Below are positions 25,872 to 52,650 of a stretch of DNA of 64,000 nucleotides, piece by piece. Every line of letters starts with the position of its first letter. The stretch's first letter is position 1. Below the pieces are notes generated by a model. It was not told where the DNA came from and ran no database searches. It worked only from the letters and a program-made list of their open reading frames with translations. A program made the position numbers and the translations under genes. Origin of the DNA: a phage; sequence record PZ386969.1, one strand, 5' to 3'.

Positions 25872-25917
25872 TTGAAATAAATGGGGGTTAAAATACTCCA
25901 AAGTGAGGATATTTATT

Positions 25918-33288: not shown

Positions 33289-33939
33289 TTATTCTCCAAA
33301 GTCGATCTTCATCTTGTCTGTTGCAAGTCCCTTCTCAAGAACATCTGCTAAAGCATTGTCGGTCTGTAGAGAAGAATCCTTGTACACGTCCGGTTCGTTC
33401 TCTTCGTCCAAGATGGACAGACGTTTGTCGATATCGTCGATCTCCGGAACGCCCGTATCGAAGTTTTCGTTGCCGTACTGGAACAACGTGCACGGTAGAG
33501 AGAACGTATACCATTTGCCAAATTGCATGAAGTCTTCATCGTTGTTCGGGTTGTTGACCTTGAAGATCTTGTTCGCCAGTGGTAGATAGATCAGGTCACC
33601 TTCCTGAGGTTGTTGTTCAAACCCAACACCGTTGCCTATCACCTCAGCAAATCGGCGGCGCGAGATAGAGAACGTCACTTCGTCTTGCAATTGGATACCC
33701 CCAAACTTCTCCCACATCTGGGTGTTGAAGCCCTGGTAATCCTGCATGTATGCTTCGATGTCGAACGCCTGGTCGAATCTGTGGTTAGCATCGTTGGTGA
33801 TAGGAAATTTTTCAACGATGGAACGGGGTATATACTTGATGTCTATCCCGCGCAACTCAATCATTTCCTGTACCAAATCTTCAATCAGCTTCTGTGTGCC
33901 TTGGTGATTGGTGGCGTTGAAATATTTAGAAGTGGCCAT
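33289..33939 (-). CDS. neck protein (gp14 position)
   Basis: Synteny; late motif GACTAAATACC about 25 nt upstream. Confidence 0.5.
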   Translation of the reverse strand: MATSKYFNATNHQGTQKLIEDLVQEMIELRGIDIKYIPRSIVEKFPITNDANHRFDQAFDIEAYMQDYQGFNTQMWEKFGGIQLQDEVTFSISRRRFAEVIGNGVGFEQQPQEGDLIYLPLANKIFKVNNPNNDEDFMQFGKWYTFSLPCTLFQYGNENFDTGVPEIDDIDKRLSILDEENEPDVYKDSSLQTDNALADVLEKGLATDKMKIDFGE

Positions 33940-34217: not shown

Positions 34218-34240
34218 GGCGGGTAATCCCGCCTTTCCTT
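34218..34240. terminator. bidirectional terminator
   Basis: Stem GGCGGG/CCCGCC, loop TAAT, T-runs on both strands. Confidence 0.55.
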
Positions 34241-34997
34241 ATCCCATGTAGAAGTCGATAGGGTACTGCTGACCAGTACGCAATTCTTCCTCTAAACGCT
34301 CGATCTCCGCTTCAGCCTCACTGAACATACTATCGCCATCCAGCTCGATACCGCCAGGGAGACGGATGCCTCTTGCCTTCTTGAGCACTTCTGCCCAGCG
34401 GCGCTTGACCAACGCAGTTGCATATGCCTTCAGCCACATATCATTCCATGCTTCTTCATTACCCTCAACCTCTGGGTCGATGTTCTGGAAGCATTTGAAC
34501 GCCAACACCTCGTCCTTTATCAGGGCGAATTGTGGGTAGAGTTTGCGCTGGAATTTCTTGTAAACGAAGGTGCGCTTCACGTTCAGCACACTGGTTATGT
34601 CAGACAAACGCTGTTGCATTGAAACATAGTCGACCAAGCGGATGGAAACGAGGGCGGCCTTTGGTACCAACATGGCTTGGGCCATCTGCCATTGAGGGGT
34701 TGCCCAGTTACCGATCGATTCAATCGGAGGGCCAACGATGACTTCAACCACGTCGTCGATGTCTTTGGGGAATTCGATGTAACCGTTGGTGATAGTTTCT
34801 TCAGTCACCTGGTGAACAAAGAATGCGTCCTGACTGCCATCACGATGATACTCCCAAAACTTCTGTAGAGCATCGTCTACAGCATCCGAAACTTGCGTTG
34901 GGTCAAGGTTGATCTGAATTACAGGTGCCCCCAATTTCTTGAGAATGTAATTCATAAATCCTTTACGATCAACAATAGAATTAACGGCCATTGCCAT
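34239..34997 (-). CDS. gp13: neck protein (gp13-like)
   Basis: KKLGAPVIQINLDPTQVSDAVDDAL matches T4 gp13 [25 protein letters not shown]; C-terminal LPGGIELDG. Confidence 0.8.
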   Translation of the reverse strand: MAMAVNSIVDRKGFMNYILKKLGAPVIQINLDPTQVSDAVDDALQKFWEYHRDGSQDAFFVHQVTEETITNGYIEFPKDIDDVVEVIVGPPIESIGNWATPQWQMAQAMLVPKAALVSIRLVDYVSMQQRLSDITSVLNVKRTFVYKKFQRKLYPQFALIKDEVLAFKCFQNIDPEVEGNEEAWNDMWLKAYATALVKRRWAEVLKKARGIRLPGGIELDGDSMFSEAEAEIERLEEELRTGQQYPIDFYMG

Positions 34998-35600: not shown

Positions 35601-38600
35601 TTATGCCAGAGCAATCAAACGGAAATCTTTGAATGACGGCGGTGCTATGCGGTTGCCTCTGACCAGCAGGCGGATCTTCAGGCCAACGAAAGGATTGGTG
35701 CTGTCTACAGTCTTGTCATACTCATATTCGAAGAATGTAGAACCGTCATTGACCAGAGGGGATGTCGGTGCCACAGTTTCCCATGCCACATTATCCATCT
35801 CCTGGCCTGCGCGCAGCAGTTTAACCTGCACAGTCATTGAAGACTGAGAAGGTAGCATCGCGCCGAAGTATTGCTTCAGAGTGGTGCAAGGGTTATCGAA
35901 TCCGATATCCTTGGTCACATAGCTGAACACATCTTCAAACGGATCCACACCGTAGGTGTTGAAGATGATAGTGAAATCATCACCGTCGATCATTGGAGCC
36001 GTGTAGACATTACTCTCGTTGCGAGTCATGGTTGCACGAACCTGGAAGTCGCCCACCTGACGATAGATACCTTCTGTCTCCAGAGACACGTCCGTGTCGG
36101 ATTCGAACTCAACCCAATCAGAGAATGAGTTGGAGGTCGCATCGCGATAGCGGTATTCCAGTTTCAATACAGATCCTTCTAGGGCTGAATTGGTGACGCT
36201 TGCGTAGAACATGTCTACCAAGTAGTTGCCTAGGAAAGAAGCCGCTTCACCACCAATCTGACCGTCGGAGTCGGCGTTGGAACTCAGAACGAATTTGAAC
36301 GTCGTGAACGTCGCATCAGTCACAGTGTGTTGAGCGTTCAGTTGCTCAGGAGTGAAACCGCAACCACCCGTCAACCCAGACAGAGTAACACTTTCACCCG
36401 CAGTCAGGCCATGCCCCGGAGCGTACACAGTAACAGTTGAAGAACCGTTGACACATTTCACGGTGTTCAGACCCAGAGGGCGGATCTTCGGACCGACTTT
36501 AGCATCGAAGGTCACGATGTTTGAACCAGCGGAGAAGTTACAGCGATACACACGGAACTTCATATCGGCAGTCTGGTTTGGAGTCCAGGTCGTACCATTT
36601 GAAGATGTGAAGAACACGCCAGTGTACGGCTGTTTGGCAATGAACTCGTTGGTCAGCAAGTTCTTCTTACCCATCTCTGCGATGTATGCGTTGTAGTCCT
36701 GAGTGTTGGCCAAGAGAACAATCGCGAACTCAGTCTGCGCCTGCAGATACACAGGATAATCAAACTTGAACATCGTCGGCACAGAAGAGTCTGTGGAGAT
36801 GGAAACTTCTGATGGATTCAGAGTCTTACGAGTGACGACAGTCGTCGCTGGCAGACCATTGCTCATCTCACGGATTTCCAGAGTGATCGGGATATCACGG
36901 GACTTGGTAGAGAAGAACACTTCAATACCTTCGATGTATTCGCCGCCGATATTGGTGGCAACCATGAAGGACTGGGCGATAGGATCTTTCCACTTCGCGA
37001 CTTCAACCGTCTCTGTTTTGTTTTCCGTAGACTTGGTCGCAGTGTATCCCAGGACGCGAGTGTTGACATAAGTCTTCTGGATGCCCTGTTTCTTGCCGAA
37101 GGACTTATGAACAGCCTCGGCATTGGTCAGGGTATCATCAGCAGACTTGCTATCCACAGGACTGTCAGTCAGACGGAAGACGTTGTCGCCCGTGTTAAAC
37201 TTGATAGTCTCGTTCTGAGGAACCGCAAACACACCTTTGATGTTGCCGTTGGCATCAGTGTTCAACGCACCACCCAGTACACCACCGTTTGGGGTACAGT
37301 ACGCGCTCACATCACGTCCAGAGAAGAACGGATACACACGAGTGAACGGACGTAGACCTGTGGCTTCGAAGTTGATATTCGTTTTGCGCATGTATGGGAT
37401 TACCTGCGTTTCAACGATCTGCTCGCCAGTCAGGGTAGTGGTCGTCTTGTCGGTGTACGTGTACGTGGTGACGTCACGGGTAGACACAGTCGTGCGGTAG
37501 CGATAGCCCCACCATACACCACCTGCACCATGCGGTTCCCACACACGCTCAGACACAGACACAGTACGCCATGTGCCATACACAGAACCTTCTTTGATCG
37601 CACCACGGGTGTTGATCGTTTCGTTGATCACACGTGGGGTGACATAGTAGTTCTCAAACCAGTAATCAGTAGTCGGGTTCAGCTTCAAGAAGCCTTCCCA
37701 GTTGAACACCGCATACGGGTTCACGTTGATGGTCGTGGTTGCATAGTCCTGGCGGACAGAGATCTCACGGGTGTAGTTGCATACAACCATGCCATCCTGA
37801 ACGTTGTTCCAACCGACTGGCGTCAGGTCAATCGCGTTCTGCTGAACAAACGGGCGTAGGCGACCATTGTCAGTGTCGATTGAACCCACCCAGTCTGCAG
37901 ACAAATCGTCGATCAGACGGAAGTCTTTGAACGGGTCTGCTGCGATACCGTTCTTGAAGCGCGGGTTACCAGTAATTGGATCGAACACCTGTTGTGACAT
38001 CGCCGAGGATTCCAGCTGAGACAGTGAGGTGTAATATTCGACATTGGAGATACGGGTCTCCAGTTTACCGATATCGCGCATCGTGTAGCGGCGGTTGTCG
38101 ATAGTACGAATCTGGATGTCGTCAATGTTGGCCGTGTATGGTGGGATCATCAATTCATACAGGCGCATGCCGTTGTCTGGGATCGCAGGGGAAGCCAGGT
38201 TGTTGGAACTCACACCACGAGCAACGTTGAACACGCCGTTGTCTGCCAGATACACAGCATCAATACGAGGCAGATAGTACTCTGCATCTAGGATGATCGC
38301 GGTGTTCGGACGAACCATGTCCGTGTCAGACGCTCCGCTGGTGATCTTGGGACGGAAATCCAGACTGTCGGCCAATCCATACACAGTACCAGAACTGGAT
38401 GAAACATAGTTCGGGATGTCTGGGTAGTTGATGGACGAATAGGAGTCCGCTGTGAAGAAATCACCAGAGCTGTGAGCGAAATACTGATACACCACCGTGA
38501 ACGTCCCTGAAATGGCTCCTGTGGACGATATGAGGTTAGAAAGGTAGTATGCCGCATCGCGTTGACCACCGTCCAGAGTGAAGTTCGAGGTGACGTCAGC

Positions 38601-40439
38601 GCCATTTGCGTTCTTCACGCTGATCAGCTTGTAACCATCATGGTTCCCAAGTTGTGCGCTGGCCGCCGCAGTAAACGTCACAGTCTCGGTGGCTTCGGTA
38701 ACAGTCTTGGTCTTGATCGTCGCTGTGGTGCGGACCATCAATGCCAACAGGTTGATAGACTGGTTGGCATACCCCGCACCCAGGGAAATCTGCAGTGCTG
38801 AACCAACCGGAGTACCAGCCAGGGACAGTCCCGAAGAGATATCAAACTGAGCTGCAGTGCCATCTGCCTTCGCTGCGGAGTACAGTGAAAACTCAGGGCT
38901 GAAGCTGTAACCCAGAGGAGCAGAGATTGAGCCTGCACCAGCGGCGTTCAACGTGATCTTGTTTGACCGCAGGACGGTGTAGTTGATGTCGATGGTGCCT
39001 GTAGGTGCTAGAGTCTTCACACCAAATACAGGCAGAGGGAAGATCAGGTCAATTGCTGAACTCTGGCTGAACTGATTGGACTCCAGTTCGCAGGAGAACA
39101 TGGTTGTGCCGCTTTCTTCGTATGCAACTTTGGTAACAGTACCCATGTCCCCAGTCACAACCAGGTCGCGCATATACAGACGGAATTCAGTACCGGAGCG
39201 CTCTGCCGAAATCAGCAGGGCGGTGGCCTGCACATCGCTGGATGCGTTCAGGAACTTGTAGCGGATTGTGCGGGAGACAACCGGAACCCCTTTGGAGTTC
39301 TTGGACACCAGATAGTTGCCAGTCGAAACAGCCACAGGGTTGTTGTTCAGGATATCAGTGTCACGGGCTTTGTCAATTATGACCAGCTCTTCGCCGAGGT
39401 TTTCGATACGACGACCACGAACGTAGGAAATGCCTGGCTTCATAACAGCCACGAATTTGCTTTCATCACCACCTTCAGCCGGAGTGTATACGCCACCGTT
39501 GTTGTTCTGTTTCAGATGTTCGCGTAGGTCGATCTGGTGAGTAGAGACGTTGTAGTCACCATTGGTCTCATAGGTACGCTGAGCCATGGCGTCTTCGAGG
39601 ATGTTGTATGTTGACTGGGTGACCATGGACTGAATGCGACCGTCTTTCACCTTCGCCAGTTCGACGAAGTCGGCCACTTCTTCATCATAACCGTAGCGAG
39701 ACAACACGAGGTCGACGCGCAGGCGATGCGCACCAGGGGCTTTAGAGTTCGGAGTACCCTGAGCATTGGAGAACAGACTTTCATCTTCTGCTTCAGTCAC
39801 GATTGTTTCTGTAACTTTGAAGCCAATGCGGTGAGATGTAGAGTTCGATGCGTTGTCTACGATCAAAGTGGTTGGTTCAACATCCAGGAACATACCACGA
39901 ACGAAATAAACACCCTTTGTCATGCGAGCGACAATCGAACCGCCAACAGTATCGGCCACACCATAGCCGACACGGATGAAGTTATCGTTCACGTCATAGG
40001 TGTTGAAGTATAGATTGTCACCAGCTTCGAAACCGTCTGAACTACCACTCTCAGTCATCTCTAAGATGGCATACATTGTATCCGGCTCAGCTGGATAACG
40101 TTCCAAGGACAGGACGCGTGCTTTCGCATTGTTGTCCTTGCCCAGAACATAGAGTTCGGAGATACCTTCCAGATCAGTGAACTCACTACCGCCAGCCAGA
40201 GTGAACTTCATGGACACAGCAGTGTTGGTGATCGTTAGGCCGCCGGGGATAACCATTGAACCGTCTTTGAACAGATGGTTGCCAAGTTTCTCCAGTTGAT
40301 CCTGGAAGATGGTCTGCATCTGGTTCAGTTCACGCGTCTGAACTTTGATAGGTGCCGGACGGAATAGGATGCGCGAAAAACGCTTCTCTGGATTCCAGTC
40401 ATCCCAATATGGGCGGCGGTTGAGGTTCATTTCTTGCAT
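35601..40439 (-). CDS. giant virion structural protein (1612 aa), function unknown
   Basis: Continuous ORF; start moved from TTG 40487 to ATG MQEMNLN with GGAG RBS; late motif ACTAAATATC upstream; Ser/Thr/Asn/Gly-rich. Confidence 0.7.
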   Translation of the reverse strand: MQEMNLNRRPYWDDWNPEKRFSRILFRPAPIKVQTRELNQMQTIFQDQLEKLGNHLFKDGSMVIPGGLTITNTAVSMKFTLAGGSEFTDLEGISELYVLGKDNNAKARVLSLERYPAEPDTMYAILEMTESGSSDGFEAGDNLYFNTYDVNDNFIRVGYGVADTVGGSIVARMTKGVYFVRGMFLDVEPTTLIVDNASNSTSHRIGFKVTETIVTEAEDESLFSNAQGTPNSKAPGAHRLRVDLVLSRYGYDEEVADFVELAKVKDGRIQSMVTQSTYNILEDAMAQRTYETNGDYNVSTHQIDLREHLKQNNNGGVYTPAEGGDESKFVAVMKPGISYVRGRRIENLGEELVIIDKARDTDILNNNPVAVSTGNYLVSKNSKGVPVVSRTIRYKFLNASSDVQATALLISAERSGTEFRLYMRDLVVTGDMGTVTKVAYEESGTTMFSCELESNQFSQSSAIDLIFPLPVFGVKTLAPTGTIDINYTVLRSNKITLNAAGAGSISAPLGYSFSPEFSLYSAAKADGTAAQFDISSGLSLAGTPVGSALQISLGAGYANQSINLLALMVRTTATIKTKTVTEATETVTFTAAASAQLGNHDGYKLISVKNANGADVTSNFTLDGGQRDAAYYLSNLISSTGAISGTFTVVYQYFAHSSGDFFTADSYSSINYPDIPNYVSSSSGTVYGLADSLDFRPKITSGASDTDMVRPNTAIILDAEYYLPRIDAVYLADNGVFNVARGVSSNNLASPAIPDNGMRLYELMIPPYTANIDDIQIRTIDNRRYTMRDIGKLETRISNVEYYTSLSQLESSAMSQQVFDPITGNPRFKNGIAADPFKDFRLIDDLSADWVGSIDTDNGRLRPFVQQNAIDLTPVGWNNVQDGMVVCNYTREISVRQDYATTTINVNPYAVFNWEGFLKLNPTTDYWFENYYVTPRVINETINTRGAIKEGSVYGTWRTVSVSERVWEPHGAGGVWWGYRYRTTVSTRDVTTYTYTDKTTTTLTGEQIVETQVIPYMRKTNINFEATGLRPFTRVYPFFSGRDVSAYCTPNGGVLGGALNTDANGNIKGVFAVPQNETIKFNTGDNVFRLTDSPVDSKSADDTLTNAEAVHKSFGKKQGIQKTYVNTRVLGYTATKSTENKTETVEVAKWKDPIAQSFMVATNIGGEYIEGIEVFFSTKSRDIPITLEIREMSNGLPATTVVTRKTLNPSEVSISTDSSVPTMFKFDYPVYLQAQTEFAIVLLANTQDYNAYIAEMGKKNLLTNEFIAKQPYTGVFFTSSNGTTWTPNQTADMKFRVYRCNFSAGSNIVTFDAKVGPKIRPLGLNTVKCVNGSSTVTVYAPGHGLTAGESVTLSGLTGGCGFTPEQLNAQHTVTDATFTTFKFVLSSNADSDGQIGGEAASFLGNYLVDMFYASVTNSALEGSVLKLEYRYRDATSNSFSDWVEFESDTDVSLETEGIYRQVGDFQVRATMTRNESNVYTAPMIDGDDFTIIFNTYGVDPFEDVFSYVTKDIGFDNPCTTLKQYFGAMLPSQSSMTVQVKLLRAGQEMDNVAWETVAPTSPLVNDGSTFFEYEYDKTVDSTNPFVGLKIRLLVRGNRIAPPSFKDFRLIALA

Positions 40440-40481
40440 TTTGATGCTCCATCGATAGGTGCCATTATAGAGATATTTAGT

Positions 40482-40492: not shown

Positions 40493-40643
40493 CGAGGAAT
40501 AGAAAGAAATAAGCCCGAAGGGGCTTTGATTATCTTTCTGTGGTTATGGTCATGGATTCGAGACCTCTGCCATTCATGGTAGATGGTATTCAATTAGGTA
40601 TGTTTAATATATCAGGTCAGACTATTACCTTAACTGCTGTATC

Positions 40644-40740: not shown

Positions 40741-42657
40741 TTACATAACAACTGCGGCAGATATGTATCCTGAATCTTGATACGATCCAGAAAGGTCAAA
40801 AACTTCTAAGTTAAAAGAGTCAGGGGATGTACTTACGACATTAATTACTAATTTCCCTCCGCTAGTGGTATTGCCAACACTGCATAAAACAGCATAAGCA
40901 GAGGAGGGCATAGTATTAGATAGGTTGACGGTATATTTACCGGTCCCGGTTTTAGTTACAGTTGCTCCATCCGCATACACTGACGACCCCGAAATTCCAT
41001 TAAAATTGATCATTGCCCGTGTACATGCACTCGACCTTTTTGCGACGGTAGACCCAATAAATGCGTATTCTTGGGCCTTGTTAATATAAATCTTATTAAC
41101 AGAAGTGTCAGGTACTTGTAAGACGTTATCTATAACAACATTACAGGCTGTTGCTCCAGATACGGTAGAGCATCTATCTATCTCATAATTGTCGATATTA
41201 ATAGCCCTTACAAAACCTATACCCCCAAATGCTGACCAGTTTTGTTTAACAAGAACACCGGAAATACCGGACAGGAAAATAAGATCGCCTGTCGTATCTT
41301 TGCTAAACGTGTTGTTGGTTATTGAAACAGAAGAAGAACGCGGTGAGTGACTATCATCTGCAACATATACCCTGGCTAAAGAAGAAGCAGTATTCTCTTC
41401 AAAGTAGTTACCATCTACCAGTAACTGCTGTGCACCCCCGGCGACAACACCTACGTCATAGCCCGTGTTTGCTTCAAATAGAGAGTCTCTGACTATGAAA
41501 TTTCGTACACTACTTGCAGTACCTGAGTCTCCGATAAGAACACCGTTAACACCATCAAAGAAAGTACAATTATCAACTTTAACTACGTTGATATCTACTT
41601 TTGACGTTTTTACACCATTTGCACATTTAGCGAAATAGCATGAAGTTAGCTCAGCCACCCCGGAAAAATAGTCTGGGGCGTCGTAATGTAAATAAACACC
41701 GTACCGGGCGTTTCTGACAACGCAATCTTGAAGTTTTAGGTACCAAGCCCCTCCGAAATCAAAACCATCAGACGATGAGTCCTGAATATCCAAGAAAAGT
41801 CCAGAAATCTTAGCTCCTATCGCACCACCTTGAACCCGAATGGCGGGTGACGCTAACCCGGTAAACTTAATTACTGAACCTGTTGTTTGGTCATTAACAT
41901 GTCCAAAACTATTACCAACAATACATAGACTATCAGTGGCAGTTATGATTAAAGTAGAGCTTATAAGATAAATACCATCCGGTATGTATAAACTCTTTTT
42001 CGAATCTATTGCTGCCTGAAACGCGGCGGTATCATCGGTCACACCGTCGCCAACAGCCCCGAAGTCCTTGACTGACACCAGGTCTTTATTTTTATCATGT
42101 AGTGTTCGCTTAATGGAGTTGGCCAGAGGTGACTTAAATCCGACCAGACCAGCGCCATCATCAGATGCAAGATTGATTCTCAAGGCTGCATCACCAACAC
42201 TAACCCACTTGTCTAACCCAGTACCTCCAGCACTTTCAGGAGTTGAGCCAGAAGAAACGGTTTTAGGTAACTCACCATCCCAGCGATACTTACCTGTTGT
42301 ATGGGTAAGCAATTCATTTTTAACATTAAGTGTAGCACCATTGTCAAACGACCCAGACAATGTAACGTATTCTTCACGAGATACGGCTAATTCCCCAAGA
42401 TCTACGGAACCAGCTGAATGTACAAGTACGGCATTAGTACCAAGACTTACAGCAGTCACCCCCGAACCAATGTCAGCAGGCAAGGAATAGGCACGCTGAG
42501 TAGCCTTATCATAAATTACTTTGTAACCACCTAAGTCTACACCTACAGCAAAGTAGACTACCTCATTCTGTTTAACACCAAACTTACGGGCAATGGCTTG
42601 CTTATTGGTAAGAATACCAGTAGAGCCTTTACCACCTTGTGAGAACATTTCGTTCAT
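40741..42657 (-). CDS. tailspike-like protein 1 (638 aa)
   Basis: Gly/Ser/Thr/Asn-rich repetitive body; N-proximal module shared with the other two spikes; own terminator. Confidence 0.7.
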   Translation of the reverse strand: MNEMFSQGGKGSTGILTNKQAIARKFGVKQNEVVYFAVGVDLGGYKVIYDKATQRAYSLPADIGSGVTAVSLGTNAVLVHSAGSVDLGELAVSREEYVTLSGSFDNGATLNVKNELLTHTTGKYRWDGELPKTVSSGSTPESAGGTGLDKWVSVGDAALRINLASDDGAGLVGFKSPLANSIKRTLHDKNKDLVSVKDFGAVGDGVTDDTAAFQAAIDSKKSLYIPDGIYLISSTLIITATDSLCIVGNSFGHVNDQTTGSVIKFTGLASPAIRVQGGAIGAKISGLFLDIQDSSSDGFDFGGAWYLKLQDCVVRNARYGVYLHYDAPDYFSGVAELTSCYFAKCANGVKTSKVDINVVKVDNCTFFDGVNGVLIGDSGTASSVRNFIVRDSLFEANTGYDVGVVAGGAQQLLVDGNYFEENTASSLARVYVADDSHSPRSSSVSITNNTFSKDTTGDLIFLSGISGVLVKQNWSAFGGIGFVRAINIDNYEIDRCSTVSGATACNVVIDNVLQVPDTSVNKIYINKAQEYAFIGSTVAKRSSACTRAMINFNGISGSSVYADGATVTKTGTGKYTVNLSNTMPSSAYAVLCSVGNTTSGGKLVINVVSTSPDSFNLEVFDLSGSYQDSGYISAAVVM

Positions 42658-42681
42658 AACGACCTCTTTGTTTTTCTAAGA

Positions 42682-42705
42682 AACCCCGCCGAAGCGGGGT
42701 TAGTT
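42682..42705 (-). terminator. terminator after tailspike 2
   Basis: AACCCCGCCGAAGCGGGGTT, same sequence as at 19981 and 27703. Confidence 0.6.
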
Positions 42706-45210
42706 TTACGAGTAAGCACTCTCGAACTTACAAAACCAGGTTGCTCCTTCATCAGTTGTTGACAACCTAAAAACTTGTGTTCCAGCTGCTGTCAAAGATG
42801 GGGTATTGCTTGCTAATTTAACATTTGCACCAAATGTTATTGTTTTAGATGTTGTTGAACAGACAGCCAAAAGAACCTCAACATAACCAATTAGTGTATT
42901 TGTTAATACTGCTGGAGTTATTGTTACATCTCCTGTAACTGTAGCTGCGATGTAAGATGCGTCTGAAAAGTCAGGCGCATAACTTGCTGTTGGCGTCTCG
43001 AACTTTGGATTTCTTACCAATACAGGAACTCCAACATTTTTCCTGAAAATTGTACTATTGCAAACCATATCATACTCTATACCAACAAAATTCTTAGCTG
43101 CAAGTATGTTAGTAAATGTCTGGTCCGCAGAGTAAATATGAGTTATCAGCCTTGCCACCCATGCTGGTGAGTTTGAGTTTTCACACTCAATGAATGAACA
43201 GTTGATACTACCAACGGCGAATGGCATTAGTGATGCCGTATATGAAGATAGCCCTGCGTCATTAAACGCATTCATATTCACAAACGTCTGGCATTGAGAG
43301 AACGTATTACCGGTGGCTCCACCATCAATAAAAAAGCCAATCCCGCCGTTAATATAACCATCTACAGGATCTAAATTAGCTTTCGCGTAGTCCCATTTTG
43401 ATGGAGAATCTGCAAAACATTGATTGAAGGAATTGTTTATTGAGTTCTGTACAACAAAGCAGCATTTCATCCTTGAGTTCTGGTCAGTGACTGTATCGTC
43501 ATACATGCCCCAGTTGTGCACCTTACTAATTCTGTTATTGCCACCACCACGAACCCAGGTACCAAATCGGAAATAACGACCTTCACCCATACTAACCTGA
43601 TGATCGCTACCTTCAACAATGTGGGCTGTGCTGAGTGGATTAGTTGGTTTTAATACACCAACAGCATAAAACTTCAATAGGTGCACACCCATACCGCCAG
43701 CAATATGGATGCCATGACCATCAATATTGGCTACGTAAATGCCATCTAACTTGTTGGCATAACCATCAGATATTTTAAATCCATTAACAGTTTTTGCACG
43801 GGCATCAATTAAAAGATTGCTAATGTGCCCAGCGTATTGATTACCTGTACCTTTATCACACTTTACAGCATAACCAGATGAGTCTGCTATGAAGTCATCT
43901 GTCAGGTATACCCCACCGAAACCAGCATCAATGCTAACATCTCCGTGAATGTGTAGTGTCGTACTGATAGGATATTTCTTCCCATTCAGCCTGATAACTT
44001 TGCTTACAGTGTTAGGTTGTAGCCAGTCAGGATGGTTAGCAGCACTACTTGGTGCATGTTCTAAACCTGTTAAAGCTGCCGCAGCATCAATCGCATCCTG
44101 TAATGATGGATACATATCCGGGTTGACATTTATAATTTTCTTAAGCGCATTGCCAACAGTACCAGTTTCGTAATCAATTGACTTATCAAAACCTGAAAAA
44201 CCTGCTCCTGTAGGTTTAGCCAATTCTGACTTCAATGAAGCATCACCAACACTAACCCATGCACCTGTTCCAACACCACCGGTTGATGTAGTGGTTGAGT
44301 CAGCGGGGACAACTTTAGGTAGTGCACCCTCCCACGTATAGCACTGACCACCAGCGATGTGCCAAACAGCATCCGTTTCACTATTAACTGTTGCACCTTC
44401 TTCAAAGCTACCAGCAACGAGAGATAAACCTGCTTCTGCAAGTAAACGTCTCCACAATTCTCTGGTATTCGACTCTTGATGAGTAGGTAACAAAGTAACA
44501 GTAATATTACCTGGATTGTACGTTAACTGCCCATTACTAACGGATGAGATGTATATGTTAGAGGGTAATGAAGGTAACCCATATGACTTCTGCTCACTAA
44601 CAGAGTAGACAATCTTTTTACCATTCAATAATTGCGTAGTGTCAGTGCTAAGAATTACTTCACTGTCCTTAACGTTAGTTGCACGAGCGATTTCTTGAAT
44701 ACTTCGGTCAAACAACGGACTGATATTCGGTTGTTTAACAGACATTTCAGCGACTACCCAAACGCCTGCAGTCAGCGCAGTTTGTAAAGACACTTTCCCT
44801 GTCGTGCTGTCATAGGAATATTCAATTTCGGGTGTTTTGTACTCACCACCGATATAAAGAGATTGGACTCCATAATATGTGTAATCAGGAGTGAACTCGG
44901 TTTCACCTCCTATAGCCTGAAACTTATAGATTCGAACCCCGGTTTTATAATCTTCTGGAGACAGAATCTTATCAAACAGACAGAACACAACGTCACCTTT
45001 GGATAATGCGCGTCCGAGATTCAACGTATTTCCATCGATTTCAAAGTTGTCTAACGGAACTTGCATGCCACCGTTGATTGTGACTATACCAGTGACAGGG
45101 TAGAAAGGGAGGGAGATAAACTTCTCTCCACCCGTTGCTGTGTAAGTGTATGGAATCTGGTGCGGAGCTGTTACGACCGCTCCAAAGATGCTCTCGACGT
45201 TTCTGGTCAT
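42706..45210 (-). CDS. tailspike-like protein 2 (834 aa)
   Basis: Shared NVKD[ST]EV ... GGVGxGAW.SVGDA module; start moved to ATG MTRNVE after a late-promoter hairpin. Confidence 0.7.
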   Translation of the reverse strand: MTRNVESIFGAVVTAPHQIPYTYTATGGEKFISLPFYPVTGIVTINGGMQVPLDNFEIDGNTLNLGRALSKGDVVFCLFDKILSPEDYKTGVRIYKFQAIGGETEFTPDYTYYGVQSLYIGGEYKTPEIEYSYDSTTGKVSLQTALTAGVWVVAEMSVKQPNISPLFDRSIQEIARATNVKDSEVILSTDTTQLLNGKKIVYSVSEQKSYGLPSLPSNIYISSVSNGQLTYNPGNITVTLLPTHQESNTRELWRRLLAEAGLSLVAGSFEEGATVNSETDAVWHIAGGQCYTWEGALPKVVPADSTTTSTGGVGTGAWVSVGDASLKSELAKPTGAGFSGFDKSIDYETGTVGNALKKIINVNPDMYPSLQDAIDAAAALTGLEHAPSSAANHPDWLQPNTVSKVIRLNGKKYPISTTLHIHGDVSIDAGFGGVYLTDDFIADSSGYAVKCDKGTGNQYAGHISNLLIDARAKTVNGFKISDGYANKLDGIYVANIDGHGIHIAGGMGVHLLKFYAVGVLKPTNPLSTAHIVEGSDHQVSMGEGRYFRFGTWVRGGGNNRISKVHNWGMYDDTVTDQNSRMKCCFVVQNSINNSFNQCFADSPSKWDYAKANLDPVDGYINGGIGFFIDGGATGNTFSQCQTFVNMNAFNDAGLSSYTASLMPFAVGSINCSFIECENSNSPAWVARLITHIYSADQTFTNILAAKNFVGIEYDMVCNSTIFRKNVGVPVLVRNPKFETPTASYAPDFSDASYIAATVTGDVTITPAVLTNTLIGYVEVLLAVCSTTSKTITFGANVKLASNTPSLTAAGTQVFRLSTTDEGATWFCKFESAYS

Positions 45211-45216
45211 TTGAAG

Positions 45217-45253
45217 ATACCCCATAGAGGATTTGCCAATATGGGGTATTTAG
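45217..45253 (-). promoter_or_regulatory. late promoter CTAAATACCCCAT as 5' arm of hairpin; 3' arm ATGGGGTAT 6 nt before ATG 45210
   Basis: Inverted repeat ATACCCCAT / ATGGGGTAT with 15-nt loop. Confidence 0.55.
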
Positions 45254-45290
45254 TCTGAACTAATAAATTTATGAACAAAGGTATAACAAG

Positions 45291-45314
45291 AACCCCGCCA
45301 AAGCGGGGTTTGAC
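45291..45314 (-). terminator. terminator
   Basis: AACCCCGCCAAAGCGGGGTT followed by TG-rich tract. Confidence 0.5.
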
Positions 45315-45318
45315 ACTC

Positions 45319-45474
45319 CTATTCCAGACACATTTCAAAATGTATACCAACATCACCCCACCCATCATAAACAGACGACCCCGATATTCTTGATCCATCT
45401 ATGTTGGCGAAATAAAAATACGCTGACCCATCATTGATATCACCTATAAAGTTCTTATACCCGTTTGATGACAA
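45319..45474 (-). pseudogene. possible remnant of a tailspike C-terminus (51 codons, TTG start only)
   Basis: Frame reads ...ANIDGSRISGSSVYDGWGDVGIHFEMCLE stop, resembling the C-terminal end of spike 1; lies between a 3'-flank repeat and a terminator. Confidence 0.3.
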
Positions 45475-45490
45475 CCCGAGAGAGAGCCAA

Positions 45491-45540
45491 CAGCATTATC
45501 AATCAGGGTAATGAAAACAGTAAACTCTATATAATAAAAG
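45491..45540. repeat. 3'-flank repeat shared by tailspike cassettes (copy 2)
   Basis: AGGGTAATGAAAACAGTAAACTCTATATAA. Confidence 0.55.
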
Positions 45541-45562
45541 CCCCCAAAATTGGGGGCTTTTT
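45536..45562 (-). terminator. terminator after tailspike 3
   Basis: Stem AGCCCCC/GGGGGCT flanked by A/T runs. Confidence 0.6.
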
Positions 45563-45568
45563 ATTATA

Positions 45569-48500
45569 CTACCAGTAATACCAATCACCTTTTTTACTTC
45601 TGACTAGAATAGAACAATCGGTAACAGCTACTGTAGACACCCCACCAATCCTTATCTCATACAGTTTACTAGGCAATCTTTTCTTAGTTAGAGAGACTTT
45701 AAAATCTGTACCAGTTACAGTGATATATTCCGTCCCATCCTCACTATCTATCTGTAAATCTAGGCCGCTGGGACTTGCTGGGAGCTTAACATAAAGCTGT
45801 TGTTCTGCTGTACTACCAGCAAAATGACCGATAACTGTAGATGTCCACTCACTTAAAGTCAACCCTGAACGCACAAAGTCTACATTGAGCGGTTCCTTAA
45901 TAAGTGCAGCAGGTGCATTGTAATTATGCCCGTTAAGTACATAGTAGTTGCTGCTACCAACCTCTACTGTGTCTGCTGTGCAGTAAGAGTGGAAGGTTTT
46001 TGCGTTATCAAAGCGATATAGACTTCTGATTAGCACACGCTCTTGATTGCTTCTGGTTAAAATGCCACAACCTGCGGAAAGGTGGAGTGTGGAGATGGTA
46101 AGCGTATGACTTTCACTGTTGGCCTTGGATGACAGCAATGACACCTTGGGTTCACCCTCTTGAGTAAAGTCTTTACTATTACCCTCACAGTACATGACCC
46201 CAATGTCCCACGCAGCAGGGTCCATTGTTACTACCCCAGCACCTGCCGTATTCTCAGAGCAAATCACACCAACACTGGTAGACAAACCACGACCTAAGAT
46301 AATACCAGCACCTATTGTATATTTACTCGCATCATCCGTGATTGGGTCATAACCTAGTCCCGTAGACTTATCAGTACCCCATGCACTAATGTGAGGGAAG
46401 TGTGTAGCATTCACATAGGTATCCCCTTGCTCACCTTCTGTTGAATAACCTAATGCCATACCCCTTGCACAGTTGTTTGCATGGAGAGTGCCCATTTGAA
46501 AATACCAGCAAGCAAACATTACAATGCCATATCTATTAGCATTATATGCATAGATGCTACCCATCTCAGATTCTGCACACAGAAGACGTGCATAAAAACC
46601 ATATGATGCAATATCTGCACAGTCTACGTTTAAGCTACCGATTAAGCGTAATCCTCGCACTTGATTCTCTGTATTAGCCACATCCACTGTTGCTGTACCG
46701 ACAGGAAATTTACTAACGCGTACAACAGCTTTTAACGTAGGCCATACGGAGCCAATTGCTTTAATTGTTGCCCCGTTTAGATTCCCACGTAAGTAAGAAG
46801 GTATAACAACCTCATCCGTTACGTGGTAGGTAGAATTCCCATTCAGATTTAATGTACCTGTGGCTATAGCTAGTTTTATAGCAGGTAAACAGTCAAAACT
46901 AGGGTCATTGGGGATTGCACCAAAATTCTCAGGTGAGTGTTCATTAAACCCTGTTAGCTTACCAACGTTAGTCCAAGAAGAGTCTGGGGCAGCACCATAA
47001 CTAACAGGTAGTGTCCCATTGTACTTGTACCAGAACCCATCTGAATGTAGAACAACCTGATATTTATCGGATACATTCCCACCATCACCGAATACACCGC
47101 TCTTTTTGTAAAGAGACAGACTACCGGAATCAATAAGAGAAGAACCTTTCCAGGAGGCTAAACGTTGCTCTAATCCAACAACACCAACTACAAGCCATGC
47201 CCCTGGACCAACACCTCCTGTACCCAATGGGGTAGATTCTGGAGGGACTACTTTGGGTACAGAACCATCCCAACGATATTTAATATCGTTACTCACAACC
47301 AACTCATTCTTGGTATTAACAGTTACACCTGTATCGAATGAACCAGGTAAGGTCACATACTCCTCACGAGATACGGCTAATGCGCCCAGATCAACACTAC
47401 CAGCAGAATGCACAAGTACAGCCGAAGAACTAAGGCTGACTGCCGTGGTTCCAGTCGGTAGCTCTGGAATAAAATATGATCTCTGTGTTACTTTATCATA
47501 GATAACTTTATACCCGCTTAGCACAGCACCAACACTAAAATAAACGACCTCTGTATCTTTAACATTGGTTACACGAGCCACTTCCCGCAAAGTATGATCA
47601 ATTTGATTATAGATGTTTGGTGTTCCATTGATAATTACAACAACTTCATCTTCTGGTTCCAGTTCTTGCGCCAGAGTGATTTTACTGGTTAATGGATCGA
47701 ATGTGAATCCCAGATTTTTATACTGACGACTTCCGTTTATATCAATGGCCGGAACATCATCAACAACGACGTCCAACGTGATTTCGGTTTCACCGCCAAT
47801 CGCTGAACCCCCATTATAGACCCAAGTAATCGTAGAAGAACTAGAACCACCGCCATTACCCAATTGAATAGGAGTATATTCAATCACCTGAAGTTCTGTG
47901 CTGGCTGGCAAAGAAGGACTGAAAGTGATTACATTCCCATCTAGTGAATATTTGGATTCCGCAAGGCGTTTTCCGTCAGCATACACGTCCACGATTGTTG
48001 GTGGAGTATTGAGAGTGACAGTACTTGTTTCAGACGCCAAAATTTTTGTAAAGATTTCACGACTGTAGACACGGCCTTGGCCAAGACCGACGCCGGATGT
48101 AATAATCCAACCTTGTTCAGGTCCAGACCAAGTGAACGTTGCTGATACGTTATCAGTTGTTATAGCCATGTCTTCAGTGGAGCCATACAAATTATTTCCA
48201 GAAGGAGACACGGTCAATGGGTAAGTGGCAAATTTCCCATAAGCATCACAAATAGTAACGGAATCCCCAATACGCGTAGGGGAAGGGAGAACCACTGTAG
48301 ATGCCCCTGTGGTATTATTAATGAGATAGCCTCGCCCTTCAGTGAGCGTTGCCGTAGAGGCATGCGGAAGGACTTCCCAGCGGATGCCACCGCCACCCAG
48401 CGGCAACCAACCACCATTTTCGTAATAACCTTCGAATTCGTCGGAGTCGGCATTGTAGCGAACGGAAGACGGGAGTCCTGCGCTGGCATTACCCTCGGGT

Positions 48501-48622
48501 AAAGTCAGGACAGCATCTGGTCCATGCTCAATCGTACCCGTGTTGAGGACACCAGCCAAAGTAGACTGCTCTTCAGCCGCCAGACCGAGAGGGAAAACAG
48601 GCTGTGTTGGTTTATTAGCCAT
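45569..48622 (-). CDS. tailspike-like protein 3 (1017 aa) with extended N-terminal region
   Basis: Shared module in mid-protein; start moved to ATG MANKPTQ after a late-promoter hairpin. Confidence 0.7.
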   Translation of the reverse strand: MANKPTQPVFPLGLAAEEQSTLAGVLNTGTIEHGPDAVLTLPEGNASAGLPSSVRYNADSDEFEGYYENGGWLPLGGGGIRWEVLPHASTATLTEGRGYLINNTTGASTVVLPSPTRIGDSVTICDAYGKFATYPLTVSPSGNNLYGSTEDMAITTDNVSATFTWSGPEQGWIITSGVGLGQGRVYSREIFTKILASETSTVTLNTPPTIVDVYADGKRLAESKYSLDGNVITFSPSLPASTELQVIEYTPIQLGNGGGSSSSTITWVYNGGSAIGGETEITLDVVVDDVPAIDINGSRQYKNLGFTFDPLTSKITLAQELEPEDEVVVIINGTPNIYNQIDHTLREVARVTNVKDTEVVYFSVGAVLSGYKVIYDKVTQRSYFIPELPTGTTAVSLSSSAVLVHSAGSVDLGALAVSREEYVTLPGSFDTGVTVNTKNELVVSNDIKYRWDGSVPKVVPPESTPLGTGGVGPGAWLVVGVVGLEQRLASWKGSSLIDSGSLSLYKKSGVFGDGGNVSDKYQVVLHSDGFWYKYNGTLPVSYGAAPDSSWTNVGKLTGFNEHSPENFGAIPNDPSFDCLPAIKLAIATGTLNLNGNSTYHVTDEVVIPSYLRGNLNGATIKAIGSVWPTLKAVVRVSKFPVGTATVDVANTENQVRGLRLIGSLNVDCADIASYGFYARLLCAESEMGSIYAYNANRYGIVMFACWYFQMGTLHANNCARGMALGYSTEGEQGDTYVNATHFPHISAWGTDKSTGLGYDPITDDASKYTIGAGIILGRGLSTSVGVICSENTAGAGVVTMDPAAWDIGVMYCEGNSKDFTQEGEPKVSLLSSKANSESHTLTISTLHLSAGCGILTRSNQERVLIRSLYRFDNAKTFHSYCTADTVEVGSSNYYVLNGHNYNAPAALIKEPLNVDFVRSGLTLSEWTSTVIGHFAGSTAEQQLYVKLPASPSGLDLQIDSEDGTEYITVTGTDFKVSLTKKRLPSKLYEIRIGGVSTVAVTDCSILVRSKKGDWYYW

Positions 48623-48625
48623 TTC

Positions 48626-48666
48626 AAATACCCCTAAATGTGTTCGTTTCATCTAGGGGTATTTAG
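48626..48666 (-). promoter_or_regulatory. late promoter CTAAATACCCCTA as 5' arm of hairpin; 3' arm TAGGGGTATTT 3 nt before ATG 48622
   Basis: Inverted repeat AAATACCCCTA / TAGGGGTATTT with 17-nt loop. Confidence 0.55.
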
Positions 48667-48668
48667 TT

Positions 48669-49859
48669 TTAGAAAGAAGCTACAATAGAATAATCGACCG
48701 AACAAGCAGTTGTTGTATTCGCATTAACAACGGAAACTCTCAATTTACCACCCACCACAGCCCCTGTGAACGTCACTGTACCGCTCGTACTTTTCTGAAC
48801 CAACAACTCCGACTTGATAGTTCCGTCGCGAGTTATGGTTACTCGATATGTATCAACAACGTTACCTGTTCCCCATTGCGCGGTCACCAGTATTTGACAA
48901 AGGTTCACCAAATCAAAATCTGGAAGAGCCGTCGTCCCAGAAGCCGAAACCGTGTAAGAAGACAAATTCGTTTTGGTACGATAAACGGCGTTCCCTAAAC
49001 TATTGTCGACAGAGGTCATCTTGGCATTATACGTTGATACGCTAACTTTATCACTGGAAAGAGAACTGATGCTGTTATCCAGAGATGACATCTTCGTGTT
49101 GTACGTGCTAACCTCGACTTTATTACCCAGAGACGTATTGATATTGGAGATACTCAAATCCAATGACGCCATCTTCGTGTTGTAAGTCGAGGTGTTAACT
49201 TTCCCGTTTAACGATGTGTTGATGTTATTGATTCGGGACTCTAGACTCAGCATATCTGCGTCATACGCTGTCGTTGTCACATATCCATTAAATCGGTTAT
49301 CTGCAAACAACGCATCAAAAAATGCAGTCATTGTCCAATAACGCGCTCCAGAATCTGTTTGTACTGGAATTGAAGTTGGCATCGTTGATCCGGTATACGC
49401 AGACAATCTGGTGAAATCCAAATTGAATTTGTAATATCCGGATGTCAACAACTCCCCAGCCAAACCAGAACCAGGTGGGGTAGTGTCTTCACTGACACCA
49501 TGCTTTCTCAACATGCTCAGGTTAACACCATCTGTCGCTATCGTAGGCTCATCCACGATAGACAGTTTCTTCCCAGCCGGAACAGTCAGGCCGCCGTTGG
49601 CGGTCAACAACGCAACAAAAGTCTTGCTCCCATTGATCGTTTGTTCACCACCGTCGGTGCGGATCACTTTGTTTTTCAGTGTGTCGTAGATATTATCCAC
49701 AGAACGCTTCAGCTCGTATGTCAGATGAGCTGAAGGAGGGAACAACGGATCATCAACAGCGAAATCGTTGACAACATCAGTCTTGCTTATTTTATCGTCA
49801 ACAGAAGAAAGGATTGCATCAATCTGCTGACCTGTGTATCGACTCAGAAAATCGGCCAT
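48669..49859 (-). CDS. tail fibre protein with tandem 20-aa repeats
   Basis: Repeats of the STYNTKM..SISNINTSLGNKVEV type; AAGGAG RBS. Confidence 0.6.
   Translation of the reverse strand: MADFLSRYTGQQIDAILSSVDDKISKTDVVNDFAVDDPLFPPSAHLTYELKRSVDNIYDTLKNKVIRTDGGEQTINGSKTFVALLTANGGLTVPAGKKLSIVDEPTIATDGVNLSMLRKHGVSEDTTPPGSGLAGELLTSGYYKFNLDFTRLSAYTGSTMPTSIPVQTDSGARYWTMTAFFDALFADNRFNGYVTTTAYDADMLSLESRINNINTSLNGKVNTSTYNTKMASLDLSISNINTSLGNKVEVSTYNTKMSSLDNSISSLSSDKVSVSTYNAKMTSVDNSLGNAVYRTKTNLSSYTVSASGTTALPDFDLVNLCQILVTAQWGTGNVVDTYRVTITRDGTIKSELLVQKSTSGTVTFTGAVVGGKLRVSVVNANTTTACSVDYSIVASF
48990..49245 (-). repeat. in-frame tandem repeats (about 60-nt unit, 4 copies) inside the tail fibre gene
   Basis: Protein-level repeats of the STYNTKM..SISNINTSLGNKVEV type. 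Confidence 0.55.
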
Positions 49860-49860
49860 T

Positions 49861-50715
49861 TTAACTCCTTGAACTTTCTAGGAATACAGTAAACCCAGCA
49901 GGATGGAAATGCTGACGGAAGACGCGATCAAACACACCTTCAAAATCAGATACGTTGCCAGGAACTCTTATCACATACGTGAATTCATCATAGTAGTAAT
50001 CGTCACGCATTCCTGTCGCGCCGTCACATTCAAAGTTGTCATCCAGGCCACCAATTTCTTCCTTGGGATAATACACACTCACTGGGCAACCAAAGTAAAT
50101 CCAGAAGAACAATTCAATCGCTTTCTTCGTCCCGCGAATGCGATAAATGTGTTTAAGTAACTTCAACCAGCGTACATGGTCCAGTGTCCGGCGTTCAGTT
50201 CCCTCGACATACACAGAGAGAGTGTCTCCGTCTGAAGTCACCAAACTGTCCGAACCAACTGGCACAAACTTCCCGAACTCCAGGAAGGACTTATCAACCG
50301 TTCTCTGGAATCCAAAATCAGCATACCAATCGTCGATGCGTTCGTTCTTGTCTTCCATTGAGATTAATGGCCGACCGTCCACGTCCAGCAAATCTTCGAA
50401 GTCTAGCGCCATCATGTTCTCAAACGTGCGCGTCAGGAACTTGTCTTCCAAGAAGTCTTTGGCCTCAGTACCTGGCGTCTTGCGCTTCTTGATGTCAATC
50501 AACTGCTCAATAGGAGACTGATCCGTATTTGGGTTCACCCAGCCACCAGTGTCTGCCAGATACGCCAAGATCTCCTCTTCGGTGAATCCCTGCTGGCGGT
50601 ACAACCAGTTGAAGAACGTATCCATAAACTCGATGAATACTGGGAATTCATTCTGGTAAAACAATGGGGTTTCATATTTCACCCCATTGTGTCCGTTATT
50701 AAGATCTTTGGACAT
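49861..50715 (-). CDS. baseplate wedge protein (putative)
   Basis: GGAGG RBS; directly downstream of and overlapping the gp6-like gene; assignment by position only. Confidence 0.45.
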   Translation of the reverse strand: MSKDLNNGHNGVKYETPLFYQNEFPVFIEFMDTFFNWLYRQQGFTEEEILAYLADTGGWVNPNTDQSPIEQLIDIKKRKTPGTEAKDFLEDKFLTRTFENMMALDFEDLLDVDGRPLISMEDKNERIDDWYADFGFQRTVDKSFLEFGKFVPVGSDSLVTSDGDTLSVYVEGTERRTLDHVRWLKLLKHIYRIRGTKKAIELFFWIYFGCPVSVYYPKEEIGGLDDNFECDGATGMRDDYYYDEFTYVIRVPGNVSDFEGVFDRVFRQHFHPAGFTVFLESSRS

Positions 50716-52477
50716 AACGCACCTCCGGCTCCACAGTCACAGCACCGATGCGGAGCACCTGATTCTGTGTGGCCTGAATGTTCTGGTCAAGACCGTCTGG
50801 AGACACAATTATTGTCACACCCTCAGTGTTGTAGTTGGATACTATGATACGCTGGAGTTCAACAACGCCAGTCACATAATCAACCATTCCAACAGCTTGT
50901 ACCAGATATTCCTTGGTCGTGTCTGTTGTACTCACCTTGTACATATTCAGGACACCACTGACGTCGCGTATGTAGTAAGTGAATTCGACCTCGGCCGGAA
51001 GCGGCTTAAACCCACTGATACGCACAGAACCAGACGCAATCGAGCGCCCATAATCGAATGTGAAGCTGTCCAGTACCCCATAGTCTGGCTTGAAATGGCG
51101 CTTATACTTCACAGAAGTGATGTTTGACACTATCGATCTGTCCATGTCGGTGATGGCCGACTGCAACTGCTCTTTATCGAACAGTTCGTCGAATCCTTCT
51201 AGGTTCCCCAAGCCCCAGTTGACAACACCGTTCTTCACGACTGTCTTCAACTGCTCTTCGGTATAGGACGTGGAAGTCGGATCCCAGAACACGCGGGTGG
51301 TGACATCAACATAAGTCAGTTCAGCGTCGACAATCTTGGGTGTGATCGTGCCCACATTGTACTTGTCTAACGTCGCCACGATATCTGCCTTCTCAGCGTC
51401 CGAGAGCGCCTCACCAACAGAAGGTATCACAGCAATGTAAACGTATCCGGAGTCAGGCGGAGAGAGCGTGTCGCCGCCATATGCTTTGGCGCGGGAGACG
51501 TTGGAGAACAGACGCTCGGTCAACACAGCATAATCGACTTCGGCCACTGCCGCACCCTCAGCCTGATAAGCCAGCGGAGCAAGGCGCTTGATGTCCTCAA
51601 TGCTCTCTGGGTCCGCACCGCCGGAAGAACGTTCTGACACCAGCTCAACATCCACAAGGTTGAATCCCCCGATGGAAGACGCGGAGGACAAGGTAGTGAT
51701 GTCATTGCCGTCTGCACCAGCTGTCTCCAGATACTGGAGGTACACGACGTTCCCGTCTTCTACTCGCTTACAGATATACCCATCACCGAATTCGAACGTG
51801 TACATCCCGTCCAACCCCAGCTCAACGAAGTAGAGTTGCGCATACTGGCTCAAATCGAACGGGCTGACATATCGTGAGAAGGTAGACCGCACGTCAGATG
51901 TCTCAGATTCCTGCACCTGCACCACCATATGGTCGATGTCCACGGAAGAAGATGGGATCACATAGGTAGAGATCGCGCTACCTTCCACATCATAGGACTT
52001 GTACAGCCAGTTACCCTGTATGAGTTTGATGTTCTCGAACTTGTAAGAGCCGTCTACAAGAGAGGCGCTCACAGGTTGGTCAACCGTGAAGTTGTAGGAT
52101 TTGCCATCCTTCGCCCCAATGAACATCGCGCGGCGATCCATTATAATCGTGTCCGGAGCCGTGCTGGCGTCATATGGAGTGACTGTGACGTTTGCGTACA
52201 GGTACGCCGCCTGGTAGTTGTGAGGGGTGTACGACAAGAACCCGGCCGCAAGACCGACATTAGAACGCTGTTGAGCAGAGTGAAGATGGCTTTCGCCATT
52301 CAGCATGTTCTGCATGAACCCGATAGAGTTGGCATCCGAGGCCAAGATACGCACGATTGCACTGAGACCAGAACCTTCAAAGTCATAATCCTTGAAAGTT
52401 GGATCAGCTTTCATGCGCTTCTTGATAAGATACTCGAAAGCCCTGACATCGAGTGAAGGGACTGTTTGCGTGGCCAT
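50699..52477 (-). CDS. baseplate wedge protein (gp6 / J-like, putative)
   Basis: 592 aa; start moved from TTG 52528 to ATG MATQTV with GGAGA RBS; late motif GCTAAATATC upstream. Confidence 0.55.
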   Translation of the reverse strand: MATQTVPSLDVRAFEYLIKKRMKADPTFKDYDFEGSGLSAIVRILASDANSIGFMQNMLNGESHLHSAQQRSNVGLAAGFLSYTPHNYQAAYLYANVTVTPYDASTAPDTIIMDRRAMFIGAKDGKSYNFTVDQPVSASLVDGSYKFENIKLIQGNWLYKSYDVEGSAISTYVIPSSSVDIDHMVVQVQESETSDVRSTFSRYVSPFDLSQYAQLYFVELGLDGMYTFEFGDGYICKRVEDGNVVYLQYLETAGADGNDITTLSSASSIGGFNLVDVELVSERSSGGADPESIEDIKRLAPLAYQAEGAAVAEVDYAVLTERLFSNVSRAKAYGGDTLSPPDSGYVYIAVIPSVGEALSDAEKADIVATLDKYNVGTITPKIVDAELTYVDVTTRVFWDPTSTSYTEEQLKTVVKNGVVNWGLGNLEGFDELFDKEQLQSAITDMDRSIVSNITSVKYKRHFKPDYGVLDSFTFDYGRSIASGSVRISGFKPLPAEVEFTYYIRDVSGVLNMYKVSTTDTTKEYLVQAVGMVDYVTGVVELQRIIVSNYNTEGVTIIVSPDGLDQNIQATQNQVLRIGAVTVEPEVRYVQRS

Positions 52478-52515
52478 GATAATCTCCATCACCTGAGTTT
52501 GAATATGGTGTTGAA

Positions 52516-52526
52516 GATATTTAGCC
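52516..52526 (-). promoter_or_regulatory. late promoter motif GCTAAATATCT upstream of gp6-like gene
   Basis: Motif about 40 nt before ATG 52477. Confidence 0.45.
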
Positions 52527-52650
52527 AACGGGAATCAAAACGCTCGCGCGCGTTTAATTTATTCGAATATAACTCGCGAGGGGGCTGACGCCCTCGCTCG
52601 TAACACCGCCCTATGCGGGCAGCACCATTCCACAGCCATGGAGGCTGCTT

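Follow-up and report, generated by a model that had tools for sequence, protein, structure and literature searches.

The locus analysed here raises the question of what a phage does with a single protein of 1612 amino acids (aa) whose gene lies between the neck and the tailspike genes. The gene occupies positions 35601..40439, minus strand, of a 64,000-nucleotide (nt) stretch of phage DNA (PZ386969.1; hereafter the window, numbered from its first letter), which by its sequence belongs to an Agtrevirus-like E. coli phage. An earlier note, made from the letters alone, had described the product as a late structural protein of unknown role, possibly a fused baseplate, fibre or adhesin scaffold anchoring the three tailspikes. 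We find that the gene is vriC (also vrlC), which is already named, catalogued and conserved, and whose resemblance to baseplate proteins of phages A511 and phi812 is in the literature (review PMC11721090); "unknown role" and "fused baseplate" are therefore out of date. VriC is the Ackermannviridae member of the DUF4815 "tripod" baseplate family and probably has a tripod-like, trimeric and peripheral role.

VriC and the tripod protein of phage 812

VriC matches the Pfam family DUF4815 (PF16075) in three stretches (E 1.3e-60; score 205.8 bits, cut-off 30). In the phage 812 protein described below this model spans aa 8-611. PHROGs places VriC in families of unknown function. When all PDB sequences were searched with phmmer, the sole match (E 3.9e-53) was a 1152-aa "DUF4815 domain-containing protein/ORF65" of the phi812 baseplate, which is represented by 81 chains in 15 entries. 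The matching stretches are collinear, VriC residues 4-72, 203-379, 712-1307 and 1438-1592 aligning with residues 3-70, 104-280, 393-948 and 991-1130 of the 812 chain, and by this alignment the homology extends over the full length of the two proteins. The difference in length of 460 aa (1612 in VriC vs 1152) is due to insertions in VriC at approximately aa 72-203, 379-712 and 1307-1438, and identity is about 27% in the best-conserved part.

The 1152-aa chain is the tripod protein of phage 812 (gp119 of KJ206563.2; PDB 9EUF and related entries), an identification made because of the gene order and because the chain is present in the core, wedge and inner-tripod-limited entries. The 812 genes run baseplate J, a 1019-aa arm scaffold, a 173-aa arm segment, tripod, and the receptor-binding proteins RBP1 and RBP2, which agrees with gp117-gp123 of the structure paper. 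The window runs gp6-like gene, 284-aa wedge protein, 396-aa protein, three tailspikes and vriC, so that in both phages the gene lies in the baseplate module and adjoins wedge and receptor-binding genes. Like VriC, the 812 tripod protein and gp106 of Listeria phage A511 have a DUF4815 N-terminal region. We also observed that the RefSeq record of phage 812 (NC_029080.1, 7822-11279) carries the tripod gene as two coding sequences, Gp122 (619 aa) and Gp123 (531 aa), in place of the single 1152-aa PDB chain, apparently through a frameshift or an artefact of annotation in an older record version.

Using VriC aa 712-1307 as a tblastn query, we detected the family in 1696 phage records, including Ackermannviridae, T4-like cyanophages, a pelagiphage, Vibrio and Agrobacterium phages, and Herelleviridae of Staphylococcus, Listeria, Bacillus and Enterococcus; full-length relatives of ~1600 aa are also numerous in a large protein database, with identities as low as 31%. 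The distribution of the family, and the presence of the A511 homologue gp106 at the baseplate, had been noted in earlier papers (PMC4621102; PMC11406892). Over aa 712-1307 the VrlC proteins of T4-like cyanophages, pelagiphage HTVC008M, rhizobiophages and Vibrio phages are 29-46% identical to VriC; they are more distant relatives, the cyanophage match being split into two or three pieces, and are known as virion structural proteins, abundant in virions and of unknown role (PMC4621102). At close range, vriC has matches in 107 phage records, 99 of them at a coverage of at least 80%, and the closest relatives are all Ackermannviridae of the subfamily Aglimvirinae. Nucleotide identity is 98.7% to gp159 of Escherichia phage vB_EcoM-RPN242, 97.2% to the "virulence-associated VriC protein" of AV101, 97-98% to AV101, A221 and LHE287 and ~92% to Shigella phage Ag3 (90-99% for Agtrevirus-like phages generally), and aa identity to Kuttervirus proteins is ~85% over aa 712-1307. 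The same gene, of 1612 aa and in the same position, is found in CBA120 (orf209), Ag3 (orf206), AV101 (WJJ54140.1) and RPN242 (gp159). Nothing material separates the window's VriC from these; the only difference lies in the adjacent tailspike cluster, with its three genes in a new mosaic.

For structure prediction, AlphaFold2 (AF2) single-chain models were made of two overlapping VriC segments with a 40-sequence alignment. The model of residues 1-1200 has a mean predicted local distance difference test (pLDDT) score of 74.6 and is good over residues 10-790 and 1010-1120, and that of residues 1001-1612 reaches a pLDDT of 85.5. In Foldseek searches against the PDB, the N-terminal segment matched 9eui_Q (E 2.9e-23) and the C-terminal segment the pre-contraction chain 9euf_0 (E 1.1e-19, TMq 0.47); for either half, phi812 baseplate chains were the only significant matches, with modules of the carbohydrate-binding module (CBM) family CBM22 next at ~1e-3. 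The N-terminal DUF4815 region (aa 1-932; 37644..40439, minus strand) matches the 812 tripod protein over its first ~610 aa and is enlarged by the insertions at ~aa 72-203 and 379-712. It includes a long predicted helix, aa 787-815 (37995..38081, minus strand; H787-815 in the AF2 secondary structure), which would correspond to a spine helix of the tripod; the 40-aa blocks of residues 761-840 are among the most conserved stretches of VriC, with identities of 0.84-0.91 among close and 0.57-0.58 among distant homologues. The C-terminal half (aa 1001-1612; 35604..37439, minus strand) is predicted to be all-beta, the last 240 residues included, and to consist of sandwich domains of the CBM and lectin types. 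CBM-type and Cwp84-lectin-like beta-sandwich domains, which make up the base, fin and leg of the tripod family, are present in this predicted half; together with the homology to the 812 protein, they bear out the suggestion of a baseplate-type, adhesin-like protein. As to a LysM-like hook, Pfam finds no LysM in VriC, but likewise none in the 812 protein. Within the insertion at ~1307-1438, where VriC is ~90 aa longer than the 812 protein, lies a small domain common to tailspikes (aa 1337-1422, 86 residues; 36174..36431, minus strand): phmmer aligns it with the C-terminal region of HK620 tailspike chains at E ~1e-4 and, more weakly, with the phi92 endosialidase, and the Pfam family Phage_spike_2 matches at E 1.3e-3, below its cut-off.

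VriC is a late structural protein, as the earlier note had supposed, and its close orthologues are abundant in purified virions. Ag3 orf206, at 177.2 kDa, is among the six most intense bands in sodium dodecyl sulphate-polyacrylamide gel electrophoresis of caesium chloride-purified virions and was identified by 36 peptides covering 39.6% of its sequence (PMC3121705). The kuttervirus orthologue, Sajous1 gp140, gave 311 spectra, which puts it in the top five proteins by representation (PMC10892097), and the product of EspM4VN gene 105 was detected among the virion bands. In these close relatives, then, published proteomics find the protein present in the virion rather than absent from it.

Role at the baseplate and alternative readings

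The best reading is that VriC would form trimeric complexes at the periphery of the baseplate, bearing domains of the carbohydrate-binding type. The mechanism we propose is drawn from the work on 812 and A511, whose complexes reorient towards the cell wall upon attachment (812 structure paper; PMC11406892). VriC homotrimers would be located at the baseplate periphery, where they are probably the "prongs" of electron microscopy. The tailspikes would first cut through the O-antigen or capsule, after which the beta-sandwich domains of VriC would attach to a conserved component of the envelope that most plausibly lies within lipopolysaccharide (LPS). A rearrangement like that of the 812 tripods might follow, in which VriC would secure the baseplate on the cell and help to bring about the change behind sheath contraction. 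Since purified LPS alone releases DNA from the kuttervirus Det7 (review PMC11721090), any second receptor should lie within LPS. Identity is even along VriC, at 0.59-0.95 per 40-aa block among 24 close homologues and with no variable tip, whereas the tailspike cluster is mosaic; from this contrast in sequence we infer that VriC is not a host-range determinant and that any target it binds would be conserved.

On this picture VriC would be a candidate for a second, conserved binding step, analogous to that of the T4 short tail fibre. T4 gp12 and gp9-gp11 are encoded at the equivalent genome position, ahead of gp13/gp14, and Ackermannviridae lack gp9-gp12 (review PMC11721090). The analogy is functional only, with no relationship in sequence or fold: no similarity of VriC to gp9, gp10, gp11 or gp12 was found by Pfam, PHROGs, PDB sequence or fold searches. 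That no T4 protein had been recognised in the sequence agrees with the lack of any T4 baseplate family among its Pfam and PHROGs matches. A bolder version, which we put forward tentatively and would sooner doubt than rely on, has VriC tripods as the functional equivalent of T4 short tail fibres, their CBM- and lectin-like domains binding the LPS inner core or lipid A after tailspike digestion, with an 812-like refolding that would trigger sheath contraction and an attachment that would dispense with the arm scaffold.

Several points weigh against the proposed role. The tripods of 812 are held by docking loops on the 1019-aa arm scaffold; among the baseplate genes of the window, no long scaffold with such loops was found. 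The 812 arm scaffold has no Pfam family of its own; in pairwise BLASTP it matched neither the 396-aa protein nor TSP4, the largest of the three tailspike proteins (TSPs), and its one match, a weak one (E 0.012), paired its N-terminus with the C-terminal end of the 284-aa wedge protein. With no full counterpart of the 812 docking partner in the window, the attachment of VriC must therefore differ. The binding to the cell wall that has been proposed for 812 does not transfer directly to a Gram-negative host, as this one is. AF2 modelled aa 800-1010 poorly, a stretch that may depend on oligomerisation. Even conservation is equally to be expected of a purely structural protein. The placement of VriC as "prongs" beneath the baseplate is a speculation of the review (PMC11721090), albeit one that fits the picture drawn here, and the literature holds no VriC structure, localisation or mutant for any Ackermannviridae phage; a literature search likewise found, among the papers it covered, no cryo-electron microscopy structure of an Ackermannviridae baseplate.

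One alternative is that VriC is purely architectural, thickening or stabilising the baseplate without binding cells. The presence of vrlC does correlate with large double-layered ("double-ring") baseplates (PMC4621102), and both the abundance of the orthologues in virions and the uniform conservation without a variable tip would suit such a part. We nevertheless consider it unlikely, because CBM- and lectin-like folds have been kept across Gram-positive and Gram-negative lineages and because the 812 and A511 complexes turn towards the cell wall upon attachment. Far less probable still is that VriC is an enzyme, either a depolymerase or, as its name suggests, a genuine virulence factor of bacteria. 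We rejected this reading because neither a catalytic family nor a catalytic fold was found: Pfam searched up to E 0.1 yields no catalytic family, the significant fold matches include neither a beta-helix nor an enzyme fold, and no right-handed beta-helix domain of the tailspike or depolymerase kind was found by Pfam, PHROGs or significant Foldseek matches. The endosialidase and HK620 matches are confined to the non-catalytic 86-aa small domain, and the orthologue is a component of the virion. Relatives of the gene are annotated as "hypothetical protein", "tail fiber protein" or "virulence-associated VriC/VrlC protein", and the label "virulence-associated" is a misnomer. Homology to a non-structural enzyme, the other finding that would have spoken for a different kind of protein, is likewise not seen.

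The remaining alternative follows the earlier suggestion of a scaffold for the three tailspikes, VriC serving as an adaptor that bears the tailspike complex with the N-terminal anchor domain of TSP4 docked on it. In its favour, vriC always adjoins the tailspike cluster, both in the phage records and in a survey that used it as a conserved landmark to find that cluster in 99 genomes (PMC8432352); VriC holds a small tailspike-type domain that the 812 protein lacks; and immunolocalisation in A511, as cited in PMC4621102, was interpreted as the receptor-binding protein gp108 bound to the VrlC homologue. In CBA120, however, the 335 N-terminal residues of TSP4 (TSP4-N) by themselves assemble TSP1-3 and anchor the complex to the baseplate, by means of an anchor domain and XD domains of the T4 gp10 type, and gp10 sits on the wedge in T4 (PMC8825819). 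The 1027-aa tailspike of the window is of this TSP4 type, with anchor and XD domains (E 5e-198 to PDB 7rej, TSP4-N), which leaves the anchoring of the three tailspikes by VriC unsupported. In 812, moreover, receptor-binding proteins and tripods both attach to the arm and not to each other, and make contact only after contraction. The VriC small domain (aa 1311-1440) shows no similarity to the gp10-like XD domains of TSP4-N, its resemblance being to the C-terminal region of the HK620 tailspike, and we rejected it as a gp10-like tailspike dock. We hold this alternative to be improbable, about as much so as a purely architectural VriC, and keep it low rather than at zero because no baseplate protein has yet been assigned as the partner of the TSP4 anchor domain (PMC8825819). 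A peripheral, tripod-like complex remains the reading we prefer.

Coding sequence and late expression

The vriC coding sequence (35601..40439, minus strand) comprises 4839 nt including the stop codon and encodes a protein of 177.3 kDa with a pI of 4.9; the ATG is at 40439-40437 and the stop codon at 35601-35603. It had been called a single uninterrupted 4.8-kb open reading frame (ORF), and this holds, with the minus strand now added; an open frame of 1612 codons has a chance of (61/64)^1612, or about e^-77, and lies far beyond coincidence. The longest mechanical ORF opens further upstream, at TTG 40487. We place the start at ATG 40439 because the TTG would enclose the promoter motif and because the consensus N-terminus of 39 homologues, MQxTNxNxxPYFDD, begins MQxTNxN. 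The richness in Ser, Thr, Asn and Gly that had been remarked upon is real, at 31.9% of residues, a level similar to that of neighbouring tail proteins (33-39%); head and packaging proteins have 20-27%.

Direct reading of the sequence confirms a ribosome-binding site of the gene's own, GGAG at 40447..40450 (minus strand), with a 7-nt spacer to the ATG. The late promoter motif that had been claimed is present, although it is not the one of T4: the T4 late promoter consensus, TATAAATA, has 0 matches in the whole 64-kb window and was rejected for vriC, its place being taken by CTAAATA, the late-gene motif of the Ackermannviridae, at 40474..40480 (minus strand), 35 nt ahead of the ATG. The published form of the family motif is CTAAATAcCcc (PMC7283392). 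The window contains 13 copies of CTAAATA against 4.4 expected, a count that none of 100 shuffles reached, and all 13 lie on the strand of the downstream gene. Twelve of them are ~20-55 nt ahead of gene starts, mostly of recognisable late (virion) genes on both strands; the exception, at 33923, is just inside the start of the gp14-like gene. Further sites, often reading CTAAATAcccc, are at, e.g., 45247, 48660, 29665, 25863, 58714 and 59209. Several copies, we also observed, are followed by a hairpin-forming "cccc...ggggta" inverted repeat immediately before the start codon. Just 5' of the vriC promoter motif, a consensus scan places a terminator-like hairpin with a T-rich tail (40511..40526, minus strand), a function assigned by its form. 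From the upstream CTAAATA and this hairpin it follows that vriC probably begins its own late transcript, and we regard it as a late-transcribed single gene.

Neighbouring genes and significance

The gene order of the window is head genes, portal, tube, sheath and terminase, then gp15-, gp14- and gp13-like neck genes, two small genes and vriC, beyond which come the tailspike cluster, two small baseplate genes and a gp6-like wedge gene; the order in relatives is identical. The location given before, between neck and tailspike genes, is correct, with the gp14-like (33289-33939) and gp13-like (34239-34997) genes on one side and three tailspike genes on the other. These three, for proteins of 638, 839 and 1027 aa of PHROGs tail spike families, extend over 40741..48652 (minus strand). 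The closest relatives, AV101 and RPN242, have four genes in the cluster. Its GC content is 42.8% against 51.4% for vriC, and no phage record covers it at 80% or more; it is therefore a new mosaic of receptor-binding modules.

Next to TSP4, a 396-aa protein of PHROG 3838 (unknown function) is encoded at 48669-49859 (minus strand), with an S+T+N+G content of 38.6%. It may be a component of the baseplate or of a fibre, and it is a candidate for the partner on which TSP4 or VriC docks. The wedge genes, for the 284-aa protein (Pfam Baseplate_wedge) and the 609-aa gp6-like protein, follow at 49861..52528 (minus strand). Neither the 396-aa nor the 284-aa protein matched any PDB sequence. Away from this module, a 599-aa ORF on the opposite strand (25903-27702, plus) lies between the tail tube and tail sheath genes; its GC content is low (0.445), its AT skew is reversed, and it matches Pfam DUF7487 (2e-25) and, weakly, a Vsr-like endonuclease domain (DUF559/REase_MTES_1575). 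Relatives carry a different gene of ~700 nt at this site, on the minus strand, annotated as a GIY-YIG endonuclease in RPN242 and as a hypothetical protein in AV101; the ORF of the window is probably a different insertion of the homing-endonuclease type.

Ackermannviridae have been widely proposed for biocontrol and therapy. With vriC annotated in more than 100 phage genomes, the gene itself adds nothing new, but the annotation can be improved: "virulence-associated protein" and "hypothetical protein" should become "baseplate tripod protein (DUF4815/VrlC family)". The 812 structures of 2025-2026 make the question of the role of VriC testable, and its target, together with an attachment that does without the scaffold, would complete a model of how Ackermannviridae commit to infection.

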